A DNA stretch of 64,000 nt from Chthoniobacterales bacterium. Lineage in GTDB: Bacteria; Verrucomicrobiota; Verrucomicrobiia; Chthoniobacterales; UBA10450. Where the stretch lies: positions 59,085 through 123,084 of the forward strand of contig JBBRNL010000003.1 of assembly GCA_038230335.1 (NCBI GenBank), given 5' to 3'. Of the stretch, positions 21,765 to 36,861 are shown piece by piece. Positions within the stretch are counted from its first letter, which is position 1; every line of letters starts with the position of its first letter. The notes under the pieces were generated by a model. It ran no database searches and had not been told where the DNA came from. It saw only the letters and a list, made by a program, of their open reading frames with translations. Made by a program: the position numbers and the translations under genes.

Positions 21765-22757
21765 ATGAAACAAAATATTACACTGTTGTTCCCCCTGAAG
21801 AATCACGCTGTTTTTCTGATGGCGCTGGGCGCGGCGGCTGGACTCTCTTTCTTCGCGTCGCCCAGTGCGAACGCCCAGGTATCCGACAGGCGTCGTCCCC
21901 GTCCCGACTTTGGACCGACCGGACCTACGGGCGCGACAGGTCCAGCGGGCGTCATGGGCAACACCGGAGCCACCGGCTCCACTGGAGCGGCTGGCGCCAT
22001 GGGGACGGCGGGTGCTAACGGAGCGACCGGACCTTCCGGAGCAACCGGGCAGAATGGCGCGACTGGCGCGCAGGGTCCAATGGGCACAACGGGTACGACT
22101 GGCATGATCGGTGCAACCGGAGTCACCGGCGCGACGGGAGCATTAGGCGCGACCGGAGCCACTGGTCCGACCGGACCCGAGGTTTCTTCAGCATTCGCTT
22201 ACGTTTACAACGTCGCTGCGGAAACGGTCGCCACTGGTGTTTCGGTTGCGTTCAGCAACAGTGGGCCGGCTCAAAACATAACACTCACAGGCACGACAGG
22301 TTTAGTCTTGGGCACGGACGGGACATACCTTCTGGAGTTTCACGTCCGCGGCAGTTCTTCGAGTTCCGGTGCGATCGTATTTCAACTCGATGCCGATGGT
22401 ATTCAAATTCCCGGATCGGAATATTCCAGCCAACTCCCGCCGGCCGCCGCGATTTCTTTTCAAAAATTGCCCGAGGTCCAAGCCGTCTCCAACAGCTCCA
22501 CGGTCGCGGTCAACGGTATTGTCACGGCTGGATTGACGGCTGGAACGCTTGTCAGCCTGCAAAATGCGACTCCGCTGTTGGCCAGCGTCACTCTCCCCGC
22601 GGATGTAAACAGCCCGGTGAACGCTTCTCTGCGCATCGAGCGAATTGGGCCATTGACTGGTGCCACTGGGGCGACCGGTCCCACTGGTTTCACTGGTCCA
22701 ACTGGCCCGACCGGGATCACTGGCCCGACGGGGATCACTGGCCCGACCGGTCCTTAA
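21765..22757 (+). CDS. collagen-like triple-helix-repeat protein (G-x-T repeats flanking a globular domain), secreted
   Basis: A signal peptide is followed by about 90 aa of [22 protein letters not shown]..., then a globular region of about 150 aa, then a second [32 protein letters not shown] tract running to the C-terminus. Confidence 0.8.
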
Positions 22758-24251: not shown

Positions 24252-25019
24252 ATGATTCAACGAAAAGAATTTTTGGTCGATCCGTGTTCATCTGTGGCTC
24301 GAATTCTTTTGCAGTCGCCCCTGAGGCCCGCGCTCGAGCGTGCCTTGCTCGTTACGTGTCTCGCGGCCTCAGCCATGGCGGGCGAGCCCAACAGGGTTCG
24401 TTATGTCGCTATTGGTGACTCCTATTCCATCGGGGAAGGAGCTTCTCCTAACGAATCGTGGCCGGCCTTACTGACCCGCCACCTGAACGAGCAAGGCTTG
24501 CGCGTCGACCTCGTGGCCAATCCATCGCGCACGGGTTGGACGACGCAACAGGCGATCGATCGCGAACTTCCTGTCATGGTCAACGCCGGCCCGAACTTTG
24601 CGACACTCCAGATCGGTGTGAATGATTGGGTGCAGGGCGTGACGGCCGAAGACTTCCGCAAACGCTTTATTCTGCTCGTCGATCGAATGCTTGAGGTGCT
24701 TGGAAACAAAGATCACTTGCTCGTCGTAACCATCCCCGACTTCGGGGTCACGCCAACCGGTGCGCATTACGCGCGTGGACGCGACATTTCCGCCGGCCTC
24801 ACCGCATTCAACCAGGTGATTATGGAAGAGGCGAGAAAACGCGGCCTCCGCACAGTCGATGTTTTCGACCTGAGCAAGCGGATGCATGAGGACCTGTCCT
24901 TGCGGGCCTCCGACGGATTGCATCCTTCGGCCAAAGAGTACGCGAAATGGGAGAAAGTAATTTTCCCGGTTACGCTCGAATTGATCAAGAATGAGCGATC
25001 GATTGAGACCAATCACTGA
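24252..25019 (+). CDS. SGNH/GDSL hydrolase, exported
   Basis: Block I is YVAIGDSYSIGEG, followed by GVNDW and a DGLHPS catalytic block. The start is uncertain: a dispersed-repeat half-site lies in the first 60 nt, and an in-frame TTG sits at 24345. Confidence 0.8.
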   Translation: MIQRKEFLVDPCSSVARILLQSPLRPALERALLVTCLAASAMAGEPNRVRYVAIGDSYSIGEGASPNESWPALLTRHLNEQGLRVDLVANPSRTGWTTQQAIDRELPVMVNAGPNFATLQIGVNDWVQGVTAEDFRKRFILLVDRMLEVLGNKDHLLVVTIPDFGVTPTGAHYARGRDISAGLTAFNQVIMEEARKRGLRTVDVFDLSKRMHEDLSLRASDGLHPSAKEYAKWEKVIFPVTLELIKNERSIETNH

Positions 25020-25050: not shown

Positions 25051-25122
25051 TGGGCGGTGAGGGTTTCGAACCCCCGACCCTCTCGGTGTAAACGAGACGC
25101 TCTACCGCTGAGCTAACCGCCC
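25051..25122 (-). tRNA. tRNA-Val (anticodon TAC)
   Basis: The reverse complement folds by hand into a cloverleaf: acceptor GGGCGGT/ACCGCCC, D-arm GCTC-AGCGGTA-GAGC, anticodon arm TCTCG-TTTACAC-CGAGA and T-arm GGGGG-TTCGAAA-CCCTC. The discriminator is A and no CCA is encoded. Confidence 0.9.
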
Positions 25123-25584
25123 GCATGAGGTAATCGGAGAAGTGATAGGTGATTCGCGGCCCTGACAAGAGGAAGTTCCGCGACTGCGTTCCAAATTAGC
25201 GCTTCCGGTCTGCAGGTCTGAAGTTCGGTGGTTGGCGTCGAAACCGGCTTTTGGCTGCCAGTCCAGACACATCCAGTTGCCGCAGGGACCTGCCCAACTT
25301 GTCGGGCCGAACCTAGCACAGGAGGACTCATTTTGAGCCCGTTCCTTGGCCATGATTTGCAGCAAGGTGGCGCCAATTCGAGGCCAAGAAAACCAAGGAT
25401 TATTTTCCTTTCGAACATTTTTCACGAACAACTGAGGGCAGGTACACCTAGGTAAAACGGCAGATGCAGGCGCGATTAGCGACAACCCGGAAGACTCCCT
25501 GGCGTAACGGATGCTTAGAGGGGTTCGAAATGGTGGGAGACTGCCTGAGCCGGCCAGAATAGCGCTGGCAAGTCGGTCACCGCT

Positions 25585-25779
25585 TTGGTAAAACTAACGA
25601 AGGACATCAAACCCATGACTAACCAATCCAAAAAAAGCAAGAAACTCCGGTTGAATAAAGAAACATTGAAAGACCTGGGTGATCGAAACGCGGGGCAAGT
25701 TAAAGCGGGAAATAAGGCCGCTAATGCGGTGGCCCCGGGAGCTTCAAACAGAGGAACCGCAGTACAGACGATGTGTTAA
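25585..25779 (+). CDS. lanthipeptide-type RiPP precursor peptide, copy 1 (core ends ...NRGTAVQTMC)
   Basis: ORF 25585..25779 (TTG), with an alternative ATG at 25615 (54 aa). The leader KLRLNKETLKDLGDRNAGQVKAG is followed by a Ser/Thr-containing core with a single C-terminal Cys. It lies directly upstream of the LanD-LanC and LanB genes. Confidence 0.75.
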   Translation: MVKLTKDIKPMTNQSKKSKKLRLNKETLKDLGDRNAGQVKAGNKAANAVAPGASNRGTAVQTMC

Positions 25780-25852
25780 GCATGGTCGCGACTTAACATC
25801 CAAACGATAATCAATTCTCTGTTAACAAAAACTAACTAACGAATAGACCCAC

Positions 25853-26017
25853 ATGACAAAGTTGACCAAAAAAAGCCCAAAACTCCGGTTGAATAAAGAA
25901 ACATTGAAAGACCTGGGTGATCGAAACGCGGGGCAAGTTAAAGCGGGTAATAAGGCCGCTAATGCGGTGGCCAGGGGAGGTTCAAACGGAGCGACCGCAG
26001 TACAGACGATGTGTTAA
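25853..26017 (+). CDS. lanthipeptide-type RiPP precursor peptide, copy 2 (54 aa, not in the ORF track)
   Basis: Hand translation gives MTKLTKKSPKLRLNKETLKDLGDRNAGQVKAGNKAANAVARGGSNGATAVQTMC*. It is a tandem paralogue of copy 1 with a 238-bp period. The leader DNA is nearly identical and the core diverges. Confidence 0.75.
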   Translation: MTKLTKKSPKLRLNKETLKDLGDRNAGQVKAGNKAANAVARGGSNGATAVQTMC

Positions 26018-26301
26018 GCATGGTCGCGACTTAATATCCAAACGATCAGCAATTCTCTGTTATCGGAAGGCCGACCGCTGGAGGTAAATCCACAAACGTG
26101 CCGATGATGTCCCGAGGCGGCGACGGCGCACAGGTTTTGTGCTAAGACGATTAGCATTAGGCGAACTTCATGCGGGGGTTTCCCGTCGCCACCAACCGAT
26201 GAGTTGCTAGCGGTGCGGTGAGTACACAACTGCACCGCCAGAGTGCGGGGCAGATTAAATAGCCAAACCGGGTTGGATGGCGTTAGGCTTTGGCCGTATC
26301 A

Positions 26302-28467
26302 ATGCCATCGCGGTCTGACTCCATACGTTACCTGCGCAACCCGACGACGGTTGCGATCGGACAGCGCGATCGGTTCATCTTCATTCGCGAGGATGGCCAC
26401 GTCGTTGTCGACGAGGCAGGAAAACCGGATTTTGTTTCGGCGATTCTAGGCGCGCTCGGCGAGCCCCGTTCCGTGGCTGAGGTGGCACGGGCTGTTCGTC
26501 ACCCAAACGGCCGAGTTCGCTCGATTGTCCGGCAACTGGTCCGCGCGAAAGCCGTCGCCGTCGGATCGGAAAAGCTCCTTTTTACCGACGGTCCGGGAAT
26601 CTCCCGTCGGGCAAAGCCATGTCGGTGTTTGGTGCTCGGCATTTCCGGAGCTGCGCAAGCCATGTCCATCCTCTCTTTGGTGGCGAAACTGCACGAGGTT
26701 TTCGCGGAGCAGATTGATATCATCCTGACCGATGCGGCGCGGCAATTTGTGCAGCGAGAGGCCTTTTCGGCTCTTGGCGTCGAAGTCTGGCAGGATTTAT
26801 TCGAGCGGAGAGAACTCGTCAAAGTCCCGCACATGTATCTGGCCAAACGAGCCGATTTGGTCGCGATCATTCCTGCCAGCGCCCATACAATTCATCGGCT
26901 GGCGGCGGGCGAATGCTCTGATTTGTTATCGGTGGTGGTAGCGGCAACCCGGGCGCCCGTCGTGGTGGCCCCGAGCATGAATCCCAACATGCGGCACCAT
27001 CCCTCCGTGCAGCGTAATATTGCGCAGCTCCGCGCGGATGGCGTTTACGTGATTGAGCCCGCCTGGGGAATCGAGTTGAGTCGCGGCGAGAGCAGGCACA
27101 CTTCTCTGGGCAGCATCGGGGTCAACGAAAAGAATGCGCCACTTGCGTTCGAGACGGTGATGAGATTTGCCGGGCAAATAAAACGTTCTCGATCCACCTC
27201 CGCCGCGGAGTGCTGGCAGCCAATTTTAGAAAAGAATGCGCGCAGCGCGGCGCTCGAGGCGATTCAAGCGATCGCTCACCAACTGCGAAGGGTGCGGCTG
27301 AAAGACGCAAGCCTTGGCTTCGGCCACGCTGGGGTAGCCCTCTTTTTCGCCTACTTGCGTCGGGCGCGTCTGGACATCGGCGGGAACGATAGTGCGCAAA
27401 GATGGATCAACCGCGCCACCGAAACCGTCGGTTCGACCAGAATGTCTGCTTCCCTCTTCGGTGGGTTTACCGGGGTGGCGTGGGTTATGGAGCACCTTTA
27501 CGGCTGGCCTGGAGATACGGAAAAATCCGATCCGAACGGAGCCATCGACGAAGCCTTGAAAGGCTATCTTCGGTTATCCCCCTGGCGAAGAGATTACGAT
27601 CTGATCGAAGGATTGGTTGGTTTCGGAGTATACGCTTTGGAACGAATGCCGCGGCCCAGCGCCATTGATTGCTTGAACCTGGTGGTGGAACGCTTGAATG
27701 AAATTGCCGTGCGGACCGGTGAAAAAGTCACATGGTTTACTCCCCCCAAATTACTTCCGCCCTGGCAGCGAAAGGTTTGTCCCGAAGGCTATTTTAATCT
27801 GGGCGTGGCCCACGGCGTGCCCGGCGTAATCGCTTTCCTTGGTCAAGTTTCTGCGATTAACGACCAGCGTCTGACCACTCGCGTTCTCGCTCGCTCGCTC
27901 CTTAACGGAGCCGTGGCATGGCTGCTCGAGCAAAGGTCTAGCGAAGGTTCCGGCGTGGTGTTTCCCAACTGGATTGGTCCCAAAGTTCACGACATGCCAC
28001 CTCGCCTTGCCTGGTGTTACGGCGATTTTGGCGTTGCGTGCGCTTTGCTGGCAGCCGCGCGTTGCGCGGGGAAGAAGACGTGGGAAGACGCCGCCCTCGT
28101 GATTGCTCACCGTGTCGACCGGCGCCACAGAGAGGTGTCCGATATCCCCTACTGCGGGCTCTGTCACGGTGTGGCGGGCGGGGGACATATGTTTAATCGT
28201 CTCTTTCAAGCCACGGGCGAGCGCGCTTTCAAAAAGGCGGCGCAGAATTGGTTTTCTCGGACATTGGAATTGCGCCGGCCTAACGGTGGCATCGCGGGCT
28301 TTCACTTTTTGCGCCACGAGGGAAAAGCCGGGACTCGCTGGCTCAATGATCCTGGCCTGGTCGAAGGCGCTGCTGGGGTAGGACTGGCCTTGCTTGCGGC
28401 TGTATCGAGTGTCGAACCGTTGTGGGACCGTACCATGCTCTTGTCGATTCCTCCTCGAAATCAATGA
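26302..28467 (+). CDS. fusion protein: N-terminal ~105-aa domain + HFCD flavoprotein (LanD/EpiD-like Cys decarboxylase) + LanC-like lanthionine cyclase
   Basis: ORF 26290..28467 (TTG), with ATG at 26302. The HFCD motifs are LVLGISGAAQA, VPHMYL, IIPASAHTIHRLAAGECSDLL and VVAPSMNPNMRHHP (compare EpiD PASANT and PxMNxxMW). The LanC motifs are SLFGGFTGVAW, GVAHGVPGV, WCYGDFG and GLCHGVAGG (the Zn ligands Cys and Cys-His). Confidence 0.85.
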   Translation: MPSRSDSIRYLRNPTTVAIGQRDRFIFIREDGHVVVDEAGKPDFVSAILGALGEPRSVAEVARAVRHPNGRVRSIVRQLVRAKAVAVGSEKLLFTDGPGISRRAKPCRCLVLGISGAAQAMSILSLVAKLHEVFAEQIDIILTDAARQFVQREAFSALGVEVWQDLFERRELVKVPHMYLAKRADLVAIIPASAHTIHRLAAGECSDLLSVVVAATRAPVVVAPSMNPNMRHHPSVQRNIAQLRADGVYVIEPAWGIELSRGESRHTSLGSIGVNEKNAPLAFETVMRFAGQIKRSRSTSAAECWQPILEKNARSAALEAIQAIAHQLRRVRLKDASLGFGHAGVALFFAYLRRARLDIGGNDSAQRWINRATETVGSTRMSASLFGGFTGVAWVMEHLYGWPGDTEKSDPNGAIDEALKGYLRLSPWRRDYDLIEGLVGFGVYALERMPRPSAIDCLNLVVERLNEIAVRTGEKVTWFTPPKLLPPWQRKVCPEGYFNLGVAHGVPGVIAFLGQVSAINDQRLTTRVLARSLLNGAVAWLLEQRSSEGSGVVFPNWIGPKVHDMPPRLAWCYGDFGVACALLAAARCAGKKTWEDAALVIAHRVDRRHREVSDIPYCGLCHGVAGGGHMFNRLFQATGERAFKKAAQNWFSRTLELRRPNGGIAGFHFLRHEGKAGTRWLNDPGLVEGAAGVGLALLAAVSSVEPLWDRTMLLSIPPRNQ

Positions 28468-31400
28468 CGAAAACCCGCGATTATTCCGCGTTCCAAGTCG
28501 CGGACTTTTTCGTTCTGCGGACACCGCTGCTCTCTTTCGACGAATTTTTGAAATGGAGCGATGGCTTGAAGGCACCCCAGGCGATGAGCGATCCCGTGAG
28601 TTTGCCCGAAGCGATCTCGGCCGATCGGCAGAAACTTGGGCTCGCCCTGCGCGAAATCATGTCGCGGCCGGAGGTGCGGGAAGCGCTCTTCGTTGCATCG
28701 CCTGAACTGGAAGGAACTTTTTCTTTGTGGAACGGCCAGCCGGAGACCGAGCGAAGCCGTGGCATCGACCTATCGATGGCACGATATTTCTCCCGCATGA
28801 CGGGCCGGGCCACGCCTTTCGGCCTGTGCGCCGGTTGTTCCGTGGGAAAGATCGGTGCAGTCGCAGCTCTTAGGATCGCCGAGCGATCGAGCTGGAAAAA
28901 GCACACCCAGCTGAGTGTGGAATATTTGTCCGCCCTGGCCGATTCGTTAGGGAGCGATGCAACCGTGCGGGACGCTTTCCTCTATTGGCCGAATTCCAGC
29001 CTGTATCACATGGCTGGCCATTTTCGCTATCTGGAGCGATTCAAAAAGGCCGGCAAAGCGCACTCTTATCATCTGGTGGCGGTGGAAGATTCGGAAGCTC
29101 TTACTGAGATTCTTCAACGAGCCGGGAATGGCGCGCTTTTTTCCGATCTGGTTTCCTCCGTGACAACCGCTGAGATCTCTTCCGCCGAGGCCGCGGAATA
29201 TGTGCAGGACCTGATCGACAACCAAATCCTGATTCCAGATATCATCCCACCGGTCACGGGAGAGGAACCAGCCGAAGTTTTCGTGCAGCGCCTAAGAGAG
29301 CATCTTCCCACAAGTCCGGTGGCCGCCAAGATAGCTGCGGTCAACGAGAGTCTGGCCGCCATGGACCGCACGGGAGTGGGCACCTCCCCGCAGGCCTATC
29401 GCGACGTTGCAACTCTTCTTCAGTATCTCCCGGTCGCAGCCGAACTATCGCACTTGTTTCACATCGACATGATCAAGCCGGCGGGTGAGCTGACGTTGAG
29501 CCAGGCTGTCTTGAACGAGTTGCTGCACGGCGTAAGAATTCTTCATTCCCTAGCCCGGCCAGATGCAACTGCCGCTCTTCTGACGCCGTTTCGCCAGGCT
29601 TTCGTTGACCGTTACGACCGGGAGGCGGTGCCGATCCTGGAGGCGCTGGATGAAGAAGCCGGAATTGGATTCCCAGTCTCGCCCACCTTCGATGCAGCTT
29701 CTCCTTTGCTTAAAGGACTTACGTTTTCGAATCCGGTTTCTCCGACTCAGCCGTGGTCTACCCGCGAGAAATTCCTGCTCCATAAGTTAGGGGAGGCGCT
29801 CAGCCAAGGCGCTCAGGAGATCGTTCTCGACGAGCACGAACTGGACGAAATCGCTCACCCGACGCGATTCGATCTGCCGGATGCATTCGCGGTTATGGCC
29901 AGAGTAGCGGCCGCTTCGGAAGCCGCGATGAATGAAGGCGATTTCCGCGTCTTCGTCACCGGTGTCAATGGACCCTCCGGCGCATTCTTTTTCGGTAGAT
30001 TCTGCCATGCGGCGCCCGATCTTAGCGCGCACGTCCGCGAACACCTGCGCGCGGAGGAACAATTGCGCCCGCACGCCATTTTCGCCGAGATTGCATACTT
30101 GCCTGACGGTCCTTTTGGAAATCTGGCCGTGCGACCAGTCCTGCGGGAGCATGAGATTCCCTGCTTCACGCCTTCCGGCGTAAGTCACGATAAGCAAATC
30201 GAGCTGGCTGATTTATTTCTCAGGGTTCGCGGGGATCGTGTAATTCTTTTTTCAAAGAGCAGGGATCGCGAAGTGATTCCGCGGTTGACCAGCGCTCATG
30301 ACTTCGACCGACAAGGCCCGCCTCTGTATCGTTTCCTTTGTGCCCTGCAAGATCAGGGGACAGCGCCGCTCGGATGGGATTGGGGAGATCTGTGGGGCGC
30401 GCCATTCCTTCCCCGGGTCGTTTGCGGGAAAATCGTTTTGGCTCGTGCGCGCTGGTTGGTCACCGCCAAAGAGATCGTTCCGCGTCAACCGGATCCCGCC
30501 GCATCCTTCGCCGCCTTGCAGAAATGGAGGGCCGACCACCGGGTCTGCCGATTTGTCGCCTTGGTAGAGGGCGAAGGCGATCAGGCACTTGCCTTGGATC
30601 TCGACAACGTTATTTGCGTTGAGATTTTGCTCCGAAAACTGAAGCCCGGTGTGGAACTCGCCCTTCTCGAGATGTTTCCCAGTCCGGATCTGCTGCCCGT
30701 GTCTGCACCGGACGGTCGTTACACGCACGAGTTAATTGTCCCTTTCGTGCGGACGCGATTAACCGGTGTCCCGATTGTGCCGTCCTCAGCCAGGATTAAT
30801 CAGGGTCTTACCGTCGGGGCGCGGGTCTTCCCACCCGGTTCCGAATGGCTTTACGCAAAACTCTATTGCGGCCCGGTGACGGTGGATCGTTTGCTCCGCG
30901 GAATGGTCGCTCCGCTCGTAAAGGAATTCGCCGGCGCCGGCGCGATCGACCGCTGGTTTTTCATTCGCTACCGCGATCCGGATTGGCATTTGCGCCTTCG
31001 GTTTCACGGAAAGATTCGCGATTTGCAGGAGACGGTGCGCCCGGCCCTTGAGAAAGCAGCGGAGTCTTTGCTCGATGGCCGCGAAATCAGACGCGTTCAA
31101 TTCGATACCTATGAACGTGAGATTGAGCGATACGGGGGATTGGAGGCGATGCTCTTGAGCGAGCAACTGTTTCAGGCCGACAGCGAGGCGATTCTGTCGC
31201 TTCTCGATGGACTCGCACAATCTGGCGCAGATGCGGATCAGCGTTGGCGGGTAGCCTTGCTCGGCTTAGACAGATTATTGTCTGACTTTGAATTCAATCT
31301 CCCAACCAAGCGCGCGATCGTCGAAAATTGGAGGTTGGATCTGGCTCGGGAGTTCCAGGTGAATGCCGGGATGAAAAAAGAATTAAGCGATCGATTCCGC

Positions 31401-31694
31401 CAGGAGCGCAAAGCCCTCGAAGGGTGGCTTTCAAAACCATCAGAGGCGAGCGAGGCGTCCGCCATGAGCGAAAAAGTATTTCGACAACGATCGGGAGAGA
31501 TTATTCCGATCGTCGCGAGCCTGAAGACAATTGAAAAAACGAATGGGTTGACCTCCCCGCTCTCAATGCTGGCCGCTTCCTACCTGCACATGCACGTCAA
31601 CCGCCTCCTTATCTCTACTCATCGGGCACACGAATTGGTTTTGTACGACTTCCTTGTGCGCCTCTATGATTCGAAGATCGCTCTTGCTCGTTGA
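28464..31694 (+). CDS. lanB: full-length class I lanthipeptide dehydratase (LanB: glutamylation + elimination domains)
   Basis: ORF 28422..31694. The ATG at 28464 overlaps the upstream stop (ATGA). The N-terminus FQVADFFVLRTPLLSFDEF is typical of Lant_dehydr_N. The C-terminal WLYAKLYCG...IDRWFFIRYRDPDWHLRLRFHG is typical of the SpaB_C/elimination domain. The product is 1076 aa. Confidence 0.9.
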   Translation: MTKTRDYSAFQVADFFVLRTPLLSFDEFLKWSDGLKAPQAMSDPVSLPEAISADRQKLGLALREIMSRPEVREALFVASPELEGTFSLWNGQPETERSRGIDLSMARYFSRMTGRATPFGLCAGCSVGKIGAVAALRIAERSSWKKHTQLSVEYLSALADSLGSDATVRDAFLYWPNSSLYHMAGHFRYLERFKKAGKAHSYHLVAVEDSEALTEILQRAGNGALFSDLVSSVTTAEISSAEAAEYVQDLIDNQILIPDIIPPVTGEEPAEVFVQRLREHLPTSPVAAKIAAVNESLAAMDRTGVGTSPQAYRDVATLLQYLPVAAELSHLFHIDMIKPAGELTLSQAVLNELLHGVRILHSLARPDATAALLTPFRQAFVDRYDREAVPILEALDEEAGIGFPVSPTFDAASPLLKGLTFSNPVSPTQPWSTREKFLLHKLGEALSQGAQEIVLDEHELDEIAHPTRFDLPDAFAVMARVAAASEAAMNEGDFRVFVTGVNGPSGAFFFGRFCHAAPDLSAHVREHLRAEEQLRPHAIFAEIAYLPDGPFGNLAVRPVLREHEIPCFTPSGVSHDKQIELADLFLRVRGDRVILFSKSRDREVIPRLTSAHDFDRQGPPLYRFLCALQDQGTAPLGWDWGDLWGAPFLPRVVCGKIVLARARWLVTAKEIVPRQPDPAASFAALQKWRADHRVCRFVALVEGEGDQALALDLDNVICVEILLRKLKPGVELALLEMFPSPDLLPVSAPDGRYTHELIVPFVRTRLTGVPIVPSSARINQGLTVGARVFPPGSEWLYAKLYCGPVTVDRLLRGMVAPLVKEFAGAGAIDRWFFIRYRDPDWHLRLRFHGKIRDLQETVRPALEKAAESLLDGREIRRVQFDTYEREIERYGGLEAMLLSEQLFQADSEAILSLLDGLAQSGADADQRWRVALLGLDRLLSDFEFNLPTKRAIVENWRLDLAREFQVNAGMKKELSDRFRQERKALEGWLSKPSEASEASAMSEKVFRQRSGEIIPIVASLKTIEKTNGLTSPLSMLAASYLHMHVNRLLISTHRAHELVLYDFLVRLYDSKIALAR

Positions 31695-34773: not shown

Positions 34774-36861
34774 ATGAAAACTAGCAATGTTTTTTGCGCG
34801 AGCACAGTTCTCCTGCCTGCGTTGCTTTTTATTCCCTGTCATCTTTTGCTTGCGAAAGATAAGCCGATCCATCCGCCGGGCGACCATTTGACCCCTTCGC
34901 CGCTGTGCGCCTGGACGGATCAAGGCGTGATGAGAGGTGAAAAGCCGGACACGCAAATAATCGTGTCGAAGACCCATGTTGTACTCGTAACGACTGGTAG
35001 CTTGGGTTTCTTTGACAAGAAAGGAAACCGACTGGCGGTCGCATCGACTACGGATTTCTTCACTAACAACAAAACAAGAATGCCCGACGGCACGTTGATG
35101 TCGGATTTCCTCGTCGCGCATAAAGGTGAAAAACCGGTGTGGGGTTTTGGCGATTGCAAGGCCCTGTACGATCCGTATCGCAACCGTTTTTGGTTCCTCG
35201 CCACTTTTAACAACGCTTATCCAGGAGATGGCCAGATGTTCTGGGCCGTTGGTGTTTCAGATAGCAGTGATCCGACCCAGGGCTGGCGTACTTTTGTTCT
35301 GCCGGCTCATCGACGCGACGACAAACGCTATACCAATTCCGATTTTCCGATGCTCGGACTGGATAAGGAAGCGTTTTACGTTTCGGTCTGCGTTCTGATT
35401 GGCAATCCGGAGGTTCGCGCCCAGAACTACTGGTATGTGCTCGCCTTGAACGCCGACGACGTGGCCGCCGGAAAGGATCTGGCTTCAGTAAAAACAGCTG
35501 AACTCGATCACTGGCCCGATCCCGAAACTCATAAACCACTCGCGCGCGGAATTCTAATGCCAGCGATTCCAACCGGACTCAAAGAGACAAAGTCGGGAAT
35601 GAAGTTCGCCGGCGCTCTGGGTAAAAACACCGGCATTTGGTCGTTACGAAATCCGTTCAGTCTGCATCCGGAGATCCGAACGTGGACAGTGCCGATCAGC
35701 TCCCGCGGCCCGGGTTCAGCCGGCGTAAAACAACGACAGAAAGGAACGCCGGAACTCGCGCCGATTGCGTTGGGCGGTGCGATTGTGAGCGTGACCCAAT
35801 CGGGCGACGATCTGTATCTCGTTTCGCAAGACGTCATCCAAGGCGCAGATAAACACCCTCATACCGCCGTTCGCTTCAGTCAGGTGATATGTCCTGGGCC
35901 ATTCGGTCAGCCTCCCCGCGTCACCAAGGACATTAAGTATGGCGCCCAATCGCCCGAGGAACGGGACGCGAACCTGAACTACACCATTCCTTCCGCCATG
36001 ATTAACAAAAACGGCGATGCCATCGTCGTCGAAAACAGTGTAGGCCCGAGCGTCCATCAGGAAGCGCGCGCTTCGGCGATTTATCACGACAGCAGCTCGG
36101 CTGATTGGAGCGCACTAATTAAGACGGGCGAGGGCGCGAATACCGGCGGATGGGGCGATATTGCGAAGGCATCTCTGGATCCTTCCGATAACATCGGCAT
36201 CTGGGTTGCCACCCAATACGGCGCCGGTCATCACGCGCACCTCGCCATCGGCAAATTTTTGTCGGGACAAACAAGCCGCATCTCCGATGGCTGGCCCGGA
36301 TTATGGGCCAACACTGTCCAGGCCGCCACGGTGTGGCCTAACGGCAAACTTTATTTTTTCCGTGGCAGCGAATACATCCGCTACGACGTCGCGAGTAGCA
36401 AAGCAGATCCCGGATATCCGCAAACGATCGCAAAGGCATGGCCCGGGATTTGGCCGGAGGGATTCGATGCTGTGGCGGCCTGGCCTAACGGGAAGGCCTA
36501 CTTCTTTCGCGGCGATCAATATCTCCGCTACGACATCAGAACGGATAAAGTGGACGATGGCTATCCCAAGCCAATCACTTACGCCTGGTCCGGAGTATGG
36601 AAGGATGGAAAGATCGACGCGGTCGTTGTCTGGCCTAACGGGAAGGCCTATTTTTTCCGCGGCGATCAATACATTAGTTACGATATCAAGGCGGACAAGG
36701 CGGACGCGGGGTTCCCCAGGCCGATCGCGAATGATTGGCCCGGGCTTTGGGTCGATGGAGTCGATGCCGGAGTCGCTCTTCCGAGCGGAGCCGTCTATTT
36801 CTTTAAACGAAGCGATGTTTTCCGCGGCAAAGCAGCGGAGCTGCCCGCTGCCGCCCCTTAA
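34774..36861 (+). CDS. secreted protein with unknown N-terminal region and C-terminal four-blade hemopexin-like repeat domain
   Basis: Signal peptide. From about nt 36285 to 36830 there are four repeats of W-P-N-G-K-x-Y-F-F-R-G-x-x-Y-x-x-Y-D ... D-x-G-Y-P-x-x-I ... W-x-G-x-W, which is the hemopexin/MMP-type blade motif. Confidence 0.8.
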   Translation: MKTSNVFCASTVLLPALLFIPCHLLLAKDKPIHPPGDHLTPSPLCAWTDQGVMRGEKPDTQIIVSKTHVVLVTTGSLGFFDKKGNRLAVASTTDFFTNNKTRMPDGTLMSDFLVAHKGEKPVWGFGDCKALYDPYRNRFWFLATFNNAYPGDGQMFWAVGVSDSSDPTQGWRTFVLPAHRRDDKRYTNSDFPMLGLDKEAFYVSVCVLIGNPEVRAQNYWYVLALNADDVAAGKDLASVKTAELDHWPDPETHKPLARGILMPAIPTGLKETKSGMKFAGALGKNTGIWSLRNPFSLHPEIRTWTVPISSRGPGSAGVKQRQKGTPELAPIALGGAIVSVTQSGDDLYLVSQDVIQGADKHPHTAVRFSQVICPGPFGQPPRVTKDIKYGAQSPEERDANLNYTIPSAMINKNGDAIVVENSVGPSVHQEARASAIYHDSSSADWSALIKTGEGANTGGWGDIAKASLDPSDNIGIWVATQYGAGHHAHLAIGKFLSGQTSRISDGWPGLWANTVQAATVWPNGKLYFFRGSEYIRYDVASSKADPGYPQTIAKAWPGIWPEGFDAVAAWPNGKAYFFRGDQYLRYDIRTDKVDDGYPKPITYAWSGVWKDGKIDAVVVWPNGKAYFFRGDQYISYDIKADKADAGFPRPIANDWPGLWVDGVDAGVALPSGAVYFFKRSDVFRGKAAELPAAAP

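Follow-up and report, generated by a model that had tools for sequence, protein, structure and literature searches.

Tandem precursor genes for a putative lanthipeptide with one C-terminal cysteine lie beside a predicted RRE-like–LanD–LanC fusion protein

We found that two back-to-back 54-codon genes, lanA1 and lanA2, encode peptides that most likely are precursors of a class I-type lanthipeptide in which the only cysteine is the last residue. They are followed directly by a gene for an unusual single protein that joins a predicted RRE-like domain, a LanD-type cysteine decarboxylase domain and a LanC-type cyclase domain, and by a translationally coupled full-length LanB. The most likely product, inferred from sequence and prediction alone, is a dehydrated peptide with a single aminovinyl-(methyl)cysteine macrocycle, which would be larger than any known one. 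The genes lie on a 64-kb stretch of DNA, which we call the window. The relevant features, all on the forward strand, are as follows.

25590..25827 (+), repeat unit 1 (238 nt), with a 25-nt upstream stretch, lanA1 and a 48-nt downstream stretch
25828..26065 (+), repeat unit 2 (238 nt), 87% identical to unit 1 without indels
25615..25779 (+), lanA1, 54 aa, with the leader MTNQSKKSKKLRLNKETLKDLGDRNAGQVKAG and the predicted core NKAANAVAPGASNRGTAVQTMC
25853..26017 (+), lanA2, 54 aa, with the leader MTKLTKKSPKLRLNKETLKDLGDRNAGQVKAG and the predicted core NKAANAVARGGSNGATAVQTMC
26302..28467 (+), lanDC, 721 aa from ATG 26302 (the ORF opens at TTG 26290), one protein of three domains
26326..26586 (+), RRE-like (PqqD-type winged-helix) N-terminal domain of lanDC, predicted, residues about 9-95
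26614..27189 (+), LanD domain of lanDC (HFCD flavoprotein, peptidyl-cysteine decarboxylase), residues about 105-296
27175..28467 (+), LanC cyclase domain of lanDC, residues about 292-721
28464..31694 (+), lanB, full-length class I dehydratase (1076 aa), whose ATG overlaps the lanDC stop codon by 4 nt

The original prediction had described a unit of about 238 bp duplicated head to tail, with an invariant leader and a diverged core, and this observation proved to be real. A repeat search reported two copies of 235 nt at 25590-25824 and 25828-26062, 88% identical and spaced 238 nt apart. Our ungapped comparison of the 238-nt units gave 87.4% identity, and Tandem Repeats Finder gave a period of 238, 93% matches, no indels and a score of 779. 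There are exactly two copies, because the flanks outside the units do not align. Both copies hold a 54-aa ORF ending in TAVQTMC, and the second would indeed be missed by a 60-aa cut-off, as had been stated. From codon 10 to codon 40 there is only one difference, a silent GGA/GGT at codon 32, while codons 41-47 carry six nucleotide changes in four codons (P41R, A43G, R46G, G47A), all of which change the amino acid. Ser44, Thr48, Thr52 and Cys54 are kept.

However, three points needed correction. First, the first gene most likely starts at ATG 25615 and not at TTG 25585, because this ATG is in register with that of copy 2 and gives the same M-T start seen in homologues (MTDIKK...). The 64-aa ORF comes from an upstream in-frame TTG that lies outside the repeat. 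Second, codons 2-9 also differ strongly (9 nt), so that the leader is not invariant over its whole length. Third, counted by Nei-Gojobori path averaging, the core patch has Sd 1.5 and Nd 4.5 (pN/pS about 1.3), which is not distinguishable from neutrality. The clustering of the differences in codons 2-9 and 41-47 is nevertheless significant: the longest stretch with at most one difference is 93 nt, and only 0.018% of 100,000 permutations reach that (p = 2e-4). Any inference of diversifying selection on the core from six changes, all non-synonymous, is not supported, since the numbers are too small. The near-identity of the central stretch extends to synonymous sites, which points to a recent duplication or gene conversion as much as to selection on the leader peptide.

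The interpretation of the two ORFs as RiPP precursors is supported. Both ORFs hit the NCBIfam model NF038153 (lant_leader_L1a, class I lanthipeptide leader) at E = 6e-4 and 1.3e-3 over model positions 6-32 of 32, although the scores of 19.9 and 18.8 bits lie just below the curated cut-off of 22 bits. The proposed leader motif L-x-L-x-K-x5-L and its link to Gly-Gly-ended leaders of Bacteroidetes class I LanAs are documented by Walker et al. 2020 (PMC7268733), and L11-R-L13-N-K15-ETLKD-L21 fits the motif exactly in both copies. The proposed V-K-A-G cleavage site aligns column for column with VKGG, LKGG or VIGG in homologous peptides; the leader end is thus A-G, aligned to GG in 9 homologues, and not the usual G-G/A/S. 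Absence of similar small ORFs from related loci had been named beforehand as a reason to discard the idea, but eight other loci with related LanC or LanD genes (our numbers L002, L003, L012, L014, L095, L098, L018 and, weakly, L004) do carry such ORFs (…LNKETLKDL…VKGG). These homologues were found only through the neighbours of related enzymes, while a search of a 5.8-billion-protein collection with the 54-aa peptide found nothing, because no three 5-residue words are shared.

It remains conceivable, though very unlikely in our view, that the small ORFs are not genes but a duplicated intergenic segment that happens to be open. AAGGA lies 10 nt upstream of the lanA1 ATG, but no SD-like sequence precedes copy 2, the family-model scores are sub-threshold, and no sigma-70-like promoter and no terminator were detected between the genes. 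The conserved 48 nt after each stop codon and the 270-nt gap before lanDC gave fold energies no better than shuffles (z = -0.2 to -1.1), and Rfam found only the tRNA. On the other side, homologous peptides with the same leader, the same GG position and a terminal Cys occur next to homologous enzymes in unrelated contigs with 46-73% GC, and in each case the conserved reading frame ends exactly at the Cys codon.

We next analyzed the enzymes. The lanDC ORF contains Pfam Flavoprotein and LANC_like together, and the identical 721-aa protein is on record from NCBI and Logan. The LanD domain gave sequence hits to TvaF (6jls, 1.5e-19), SpaF (7cfu), MrsD and EpiD, with the same hits at the level of the fold, and the catalytic motifs V-P-H, PASAHT and PSMNPNM are present, as in HFCD flavoproteins with a catalytic His and PASANT and PxMNxxMW-type motifs. 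The LanC domain matches LANC_like at 7e-39 as well as PDB 8byk (4e-25) and NisC (2g02), and the alignment to NisC keeps DYD, AHG, WCYG and CHG, corresponding to the zinc ligands Cys284, Cys330 and His331 plus His212 and Asp141 in NisC numbering; the zinc ligands and the catalytic His are kept. For the N-terminal domain, the AlphaFold2 model (pLDDT 88-91) shows four strands, three helices and one strand; a PqqD-like RRE has a three-stranded sheet followed by a three-helix winged-helix bundle and binds the leader as an extra strand. The top 33 Foldseek PDB matches are all RiPP leader-binding domains (among them TbiB1, ThcOx, PbtF, MccB and TbtB), but at modest E-values of 2.5e-3 to 0.1 and TM of 0.45-0.6, with no Pfam PqqD hit and only weak wHTH hits. 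LanB matches Lant_dehydr_N (2-649/649, 2e-154) and Lant_dehydr_C (1-255/255, 3e-68).

We found no other protein joining the two enzyme halves in 1.84 billion representatives, and literature searches for a LanD-LanC fusion or an RRE-fused LanD returned nothing, which given an incomplete library is no proof of absence. Two related loci, L014 and L095, have the same gene order (lanA, lanA, lanD, lanC), including the tandem pair of precursors, with lanD and lanC unfused and overlapping by 40-50 nt. One may therefore ask if the fusion is an assembly or sequencing artefact, or a very recent frameshift, which would leave the precursor interpretation unchanged. The junction lies exactly where the genes of the relatives overlap, with no linker, and the NCBI and Logan assemblies may derive from the same reads. 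We nevertheless regard this as unlikely: the ORF is uninterrupted over 725 codons, the other two frames at the junction are full of stops, there is no homopolymer at the junction, and a 5.9-kb Logan contig is identical over 5,463 nt. Compared with L014, the LanC start codon is gone and several bases differ, which is not a single-base slip.

All seven peptides from the five loci with this leader type next to this LanD subfamily (the window, L014, L095, L098 and L018) have exactly one Cys, at the C-terminus, which is what LanD enzymes need, while leader-family peptides next to LanC alone have 3 to 7 Cys.

Based on these data we propose, with moderate confidence, that lanA1 and lanA2 are two functional precursor genes, each for a peptide with a 32-residue leader and a 22-residue core with three hydroxy residues (Ser44, Thr48, Thr52) and Cys54. 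The leader, with the peptide stretch KLRLNKETLKDL, would be bound by the RRE of LanB and by the RRE-like domain of the fusion protein, before LanB glutamylates and eliminates Ser/Thr to give Dha/Dhb. The LanD domain would then oxidise and decarboxylate the C-terminal Cys, whose thiol has to be free for this chemistry (PMC8549060), to an enethiolate, which the adjoining zinc-dependent LanC domain would add to one Dha/Dhb to give a single S-aminovinyl-(3-methyl)-cysteine macrocycle. Finally, an unlinked protease or exporter would remove the leader after A-G. If cleaved after VKAG, the calculated monoisotopic core masses are 2131.026 for A1 and 2090.995 for A2 when unmodified, 2030.989 and 1990.958 with three dehydrations plus oxidative decarboxylation (-46 Da, CO2 + 2H), and 2076.995 and 2036.963 with a shift of -54 Da only. 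Because the only Cys would be consumed in this ring, no ordinary lanthionine could form, and fusing D to C would hand the unstable enethiol directly to the cyclase. The two genes would give two products that differ at four core positions flanking Ser44. While the repeat, the reading frames, the motif and domain matches and the gene neighbourhoods are results of our analysis, expression, leader binding, dehydration, decarboxylation, ring closure, leader removal and the structure of the product are all inferred.

Several data do not fit this picture easily. No C39 transporter or other Lan protease was found in the 64-kb window, neither by tblastn with the L098 transporter nor by Pfam on neighbouring ORFs. 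The hydroxy residues lie at -2, -6 and -10 relative to the Cys, so that, as originally remarked, none has the i+3 spacing of epidermin-type rings, and none has the spacing of known Avi(Me)Cys rings, which span the last 4 or 6 residues, with Ser/Thr (or Cys) three or five residues before the terminal Cys (10.1101/2020.08.21.260521). In L095 and L014 the only Ser/Thr is at -13 and -23, respectively. Moreover, L014 has no LanB within 2 kb upstream or 11 kb downstream, and L095 has none on its 5.5-kb contig, so LanB is not a constant partner of this peptide family.

It has also never been shown that a LanC accepts an enethiol, since LanC enzymes are only proven to use Cys thiolates and the one demonstrated enethiol cyclase, RosX, is a zinc-free kinase-fold protein (PMC12291118). 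The precursors could thus be genuine while the product carries an ordinary lanthionine or methyllanthionine, or stays linear, with a LanD domain that is inactive, acts on only a fraction, or yields a non-cyclised C-terminal enethiol or thioaldehyde-derived end. Predicted single-Cys LanC-associated peptides without any LanD exist (PMC11251773). We consider this alternative unlikely, as the LanD catalytic motifs are intact, a Cys at the very C-terminus is only needed for decarboxylation, and selection has kept lanD and lanC adjacent, overlapping or fused. That the two peptides are halves of a two-component lantibiotic is suggested only by two precursor genes in one operon-like array, and is very improbable. 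The cores are 82% identical (18 of 22 residues) and share one set of enzymes, whereas known two-component systems have dissimilar alpha and beta peptides and usually two LanM enzymes (PMC11162475), and the pair in L014 differs at only two core positions.

As to who closes the aminovinyl-cysteine ring in LanB/LanC-type pathways, a 2021 review states that the step may be catalysed by LanC or LanD, or be spontaneous (PMC8549060). In the locus described here the LanC domain has no possible substrate other than the C-terminal Cys that the fused LanD domain is built to decarboxylate, which makes it a natural system for this question. One may speculate, tentatively and with less than even confidence, that the window and its relatives define an uncharacterised lanthipeptide subfamily in which a canonical zinc LanC uses the enethiolate made by an RRE-guided LanD as its only nucleophile and closes one very large Avi(Me)Cys macrocycle. 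The ring would span up to 11 residues here, 14 in L095 and 24 in L014, against 4 or 6 in all known cases. This would show directly that LanC can be the long-sought AviCys cyclase of class I pathways. The relatives with a single Ser or Thr far from the terminal Cys also predict Avi rings several times larger than any known one, which would be a new macrocycle topology for peptide engineering.

Compared with the Bacteroidetes-type class I precursors with LxLxKx5L leaders ending in GG (the family of PMC7268733 that includes pinensin), the motif spacing, the position of the G-G-type end, the location next to LanB and LanC and the small size (50-65 aa) agree, but the scores are sub-threshold, the leader ends in A-G, no C39 transporter is nearby, the core has one Cys instead of several, and a LanD is included. 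Epidermin, gallidermin and mutacin 1140-type lantibiotics share LanB, LanC, an HFCD decarboxylase and a precursor ending in Cys. They have, however, an FNLD-type leader, several Cys and Lan rings, a four-residue AviCys ring (Ser at -3), and a free-standing LanD of about 180 aa without RRE. In class Va lanthipeptides (rosins, lexapeptide; PMC12291118) the decarboxylase is likewise coupled or fused to the presumed enethiol cyclase, including LanD-LanX fusions, and the C-terminal ring is Avi(Me)Cys, but that cyclase has a kinase fold, dehydration is by LanK/LanY, and the rings are i, i+3 or i+4. The predicted single-cysteine peptides of PMC11251773 also have one Cys per core next to a LanC domain and, like ours, none has been characterised experimentally; that survey did not tie them to a Cys decarboxylase or to a terminal Cys, whereas here the Cys is always the last residue and an RRE-LanD is always present.

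The thioamitide decarboxylases TvaF and SpaF are the closest solved relatives of the LanD domain (about 30% identity, same motifs), but have no RRE domain and no LanC, and work with a kinase-fold partner (TvaE) in a YcaO/TfuA pathway. One RRE-LanD relative does sit in a TfuA-YcaO operon, although a scan of one TfuA-YcaO-LanD locus (L099) revealed no precursor. A metagenome scan with the RRE-LanD alignment was dominated by ordinary CoaBC genes, with only about 4 of 80 loci relevant. A scan of genome contigs with the fusion protein returned only distant LanC loci (25-35% identity), and the nearest named LanC relatives are Acidobacteriota MAGs (Pyrinomonadaceae, Thermoanaerobaculia). Since both precursor genes are only 54 codons long and score under the curated family threshold, standard annotation pipelines are likely to miss them.

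We found that a 238-nt unit is present exactly twice, head to tail and without indels, the copies being 87% identical, and that the sequence just outside the units does not align, so that there is no partial third copy. The tandem duplication described in the original prediction is therefore confirmed. Each unit holds a 54-codon open reading frame.
25590-25827: first copy of the unit
25828-26065: second copy of the unit
25615-25779: lanA1, from ATG 25615
25853-26017: lanA2, from ATG 25853
The first frame is listed as 64 aa from TTG 25585, but this TTG lies outside the repeat. ATG 25615 is in register with the start of copy 2 and gives the M-T start shared with the homologues, so both genes are most likely 54 codons long. 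The remark that a 60-aa cut-off hides copy 2 is right, while copy 1 escapes the cut-off only through the spurious upstream start. A further way in which the second gene can be lost is seen in the independent Logan assembly of run SRR19962015. Its contig (L001) starts at window position 26005, breaking inside lanA2 at the end of the tandem repeat, and is otherwise identical to the window over 5,463 nt; short-read assemblers evidently stumble on this duplication.

The two genes differ at 16 of 162 coding positions: nine in codons 2-9, one silent change (GGA/GGT) in codon 32, six in codons 41, 43, 46 and 47, giving P/R, A/G, R/G and G/A, and none in codons 48-54. A 93-nt stretch with a single change is reached by only 0.018% of random placements, showing that the clustering is real. 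It is, however, not evidence for positive selection. By Nei-Gojobori counting the core patch has Sd 1.5 and Nd 4.5 over 8 and 19 sites, a ratio of about 1.3 that rests on a handful of events. The central stretch is nearly identical at synonymous sites too (1 change in about 23 synonymous sites), while codons 2-9 and the 25 nt upstream are close to saturated (9 of 25). This mosaic fits a recent duplication or gene conversion over the centre of the unit at least as well as it fits purifying selection on the leader peptide. The 48 nt after the stop codon are also well kept (5 differences). We found no RNA structure there, no Rfam family apart from the neighbouring tRNA-Val, and no sigma-70-like promoter or terminator. 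This tRNA-Val(TAC), on the minus strand at 25051-25122, lies 490 nt upstream of lanA1. A 17-nt imperfect inverted repeat (82% complementary) has one arm overlapping the tRNA end (25115-25131) and the other between lanA2 and lanDC (26165-26181), and hence brackets the precursor pair, although this may be chance.

Three lines of evidence say that these are precursor genes. First, both peptides hit NCBIfam NF038153, the class I lanthipeptide leader domain, over model positions 6-32 of 32 with E-values of 6e-4 and 1.3e-3, the scores of 19.9 and 18.8 bits being just under the 22-bit cut-off. Second, L11-x-L13-x-K15-x5-L21 is exactly the LxLxKx5L motif that Walker et al. reported for class I LanAs of Bacteroidetes, many of whose leaders end in Gly-Gly (PMC7268733). 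Third, related enzymes in other contigs (loci numbered with L) have homologous small ORFs beside them.
L002: KLVLNKETLKDLTARGAGKVIGG
L003 and L012: KLKLNKETVKNLTD(R/K)DQSQLKGG
L014: KLQLHKQTIKDLSSTAQVKGG, twice
L095: KLELNKETLKDLSTPHEDRVKGG and KLKLNKETIKDLNTPHQDRVKGG
L098, L018 and L004: more distant versions
In the alignment the V-K-A-G of the window falls on the GG of all the others, and the leader/core boundary is therefore most likely after Gly32, giving 22-residue cores. A-G is an unusual form of the double-glycine site, and no C39 transporter or other Lan protease was found in the 64-kb window. The interpretation of the two ORFs as RiPP precursors is supported, with the exception of any claim of diversifying selection.

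Starting 285 nt downstream of lanA2 we find a single 721-codon gene, followed by a complete LanB.
26302-28467: lanDC, whose product has three parts
lanB: both Pfam domains matched end to end; its start overlaps the lanDC stop codon by 4 nt
Residues about 9-95 of the lanDC product are predicted with high confidence (pLDDT 88-91) to form four strands, three helices and one strand. The 33 best structural matches in the PDB are all leader-binding RRE domains of RiPP enzymes (TbiB1 with its leader, ThcOx, PbtF, MccB and the LanB-like TbtB), though with modest E-values of 2.5e-3 to 0.1, and Pfam gives only weak winged-helix hits. Residues about 105-296 are an HFCD flavoprotein, whose closest solved relatives by sequence and by fold are the peptidyl-cysteine decarboxylases TvaF, SpaF, MrsD and EpiD, together with CoaC; the V-P-H histidine and the PASAHT and PSMNxxM motifs are in place. 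Residues about 292-721 are a LanC cyclase with the NisC zinc ligands and catalytic residues (DYD, AHG, WCYG and CHG). The rest of the window is ordinary chromosome, including dnaX, purF and purL.

To learn how unusual the fusion is, we searched two protein collections. In the word-indexed search of 5.8 billion proteins, the only protein with both Pfam domains is the window's own. In the exhaustive HMMER scan of 1.84 billion representatives, every one of the best 150 hits matches one half only, the best non-self hit being a free-standing LanC at 48% identity; fusions whose halves are much more distant would fall below that list and are not excluded. One hit, P0262, is a 304-aa free-standing version of the half comprising the predicted RRE and LanD (RRE-LanD), at 53% identity. 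Its locus, L014, reads lanA, lanA, lanD, lanC, with lanD and lanC overlapping by 40 nt in different frames, and L095 has the same four genes with a 50-nt overlap. Fusion residues 5-296 align to residues 2-296 (of 304) of the L014 LanD, and residues 292-717 align to residues 2-433 of the L014 LanC. The two genes have been joined inside the old overlap, with no linker, and the LanC start codon has been lost. There is no homopolymer at the junction, and the independent Logan contig is identical over 5,463 nt. We rate the fusion as probably real. L014 comes from a relative of the source organism with a partly syntenic locus: its GDSL lipase (L014 9867-10496), 5 kb downstream of lanC, is 69% identical to the one just upstream of the window's cluster (24252-25019).

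The distinctive feature of the peptides is their cysteine content. Among this leader family, the peptides next to a LanC alone (L002, L003, L012, L004 and L010) have three to seven Cys, while the peptides next to the RRE-LanD subfamily have exactly one, and it is always the last residue. This holds for seven peptides in five loci: window A1 and A2, L014 (two peptides), L095 (two peptides), L098 and L018. A C-terminal Cys with a free thiol is the substrate of LanD enzymes, which oxidise it and lose CO2 to give an enethiol that then adds to a dehydro residue (PMC8549060). In L095 the only hydroxy residue is a Thr 13 positions before the Cys, in both peptides, and in L014 the only one is a Ser 23 positions before the Cys. 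In the window the candidates are Thr -2, Thr -6 and Ser -10, and the four variable positions flank Ser44. Known Avi(Me)Cys rings span the last 4 or 6 residues (10.1101/2020.08.21.260521), or i, i+3/i+4 in class Va (PMC12291118). If these peptides are cyclised this way, the rings are far larger than any described.

While the duplication, the clustering of the differences and the enzyme domains recognised by sequence are findings of the analysis, leader binding, catalysis, expression and the product are inferred from sequence alone. In the most likely mechanism, the leader would be bound by the RRE of LanB and the predicted RRE of the fusion protein, LanB would dehydrate Ser/Thr, and the LanD domain would decarboxylate Cys54. 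The fused LanC domain would then add the enethiolate to one Dha/Dhb to form a single Avi(Me)Cys macrocycle, before an unlinked protease removes the leader. Decarboxylation must come before ring closure in this view, because LanD needs the free thiol. The model leaves unexplained that L014 has no LanB within 2 kb upstream or 11 kb downstream and that L095 has none on its short contig. The main rival is that LanC simply makes an ordinary (methyl)lanthionine, or that the product stays linear. Indeed, no LanC has been shown to take an enethiol, and the one proven enethiol cyclase is a zinc-free kinase-fold protein (PMC12291118). Against this rival stand the strict terminal position of the lone Cys and the conserved pairing, overlap and fusion of lanD with lanC.

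Compared with known systems, the leader belongs to the LxLxKx5L/GG class I family, in that the motif is present, but the model score is sub-threshold and both a GG end and a C39 transporter are missing. The enzyme set (LanB, LanC, LanD) matches epidermin-type class I pathways. The peptide differs in having one Cys, no possibility of other rings and non-canonical spacing, and the LanD differs in carrying a predicted RRE and in being fused to LanC. The closest analogue of the fusion is the LanD-LanX fusion noted in some class Va clusters (PMC12291118). Single-Cys peptides next to LanC have been predicted in bulk, but none has been characterised and they were not linked to a decarboxylase (PMC11251773). 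What is new here is a compact class I-type lanthipeptide cluster that combines twin single-Cys precursors with a so far unique enzyme joining a predicted RRE, LanD and LanC. Its value is that it turns the open question of whether LanC closes the AviCys ring into a simple three-gene experiment, and that it predicts, by inference, unusually large Avi macrocycles.

The RRE-LanD module itself is widespread, about 80 free-standing proteins covering more than 80% of the query, and it serves other RiPP types as well. One relative (P0298, seen on more than 20 contigs) lies in a TfuA-YcaO-LanD-luciferase-like operon beside a double C39-ABC transporter (L099-L104, 4621-8931). This is a thioamide-type RiPP cluster without LanB or LanC, in which we found no precursor in the 14.8 kb scanned (L099). 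In L096 (8001-12649) a relative is followed by a PqqD protein, a 49-aa peptide ending ...SWWSC and two DUF455 proteins, which may be another uncharacterised RiPP type that uses C-terminal Cys decarboxylation. In L098 (3620-15505), an NCBI MAG contig (GCA_044230055.1), the single-Cys peptide with this leader type (...VVGG then KGAQGQNRVLHGGPTGGYSTQTC) lies 4 kb from a protein kinase-fold gene, an RRE-LanD, a LanB and a C39-ABC transporter, with no LanC, and the kinase-fold protein could be a LanX-type enethiol cyclase. In L016 (1141-1269), a 42-aa ORF (from its first Met) with a different, FxLD-like leader (MAKILDLQRIQPE...) and a core ending ...STCSICC lies directly upstream of another RRE-LanD gene, showing that the module also serves multi-Cys, Cys-terminal precursors.

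On the cyclase side, a LanC 51% identical to the window's cyclase domain sits in L013 (8518-11338) divergently next to a 471-aa RamC_N plus protein-kinase protein, which looks like a split class III/IV-like dehydratase working with a free-standing LanC. Other fusions among the hits are Flavoprotein plus SAM-methyltransferase proteins of about 450-510 aa (P0091-P0101; no lan genes near the one locus inspected, L011 10001-11455), a 1540-aa LanC-LanB fusion (P0137) and an 803-aa LanC with an extra C-terminal domain (P0185). Finally, the region is flanked in the window by a collagen triple-helix repeat protein and a 695-aa protein with hemopexin repeats (21765-22757 and 34774-36861), both domain types being uncommon in bacteria.
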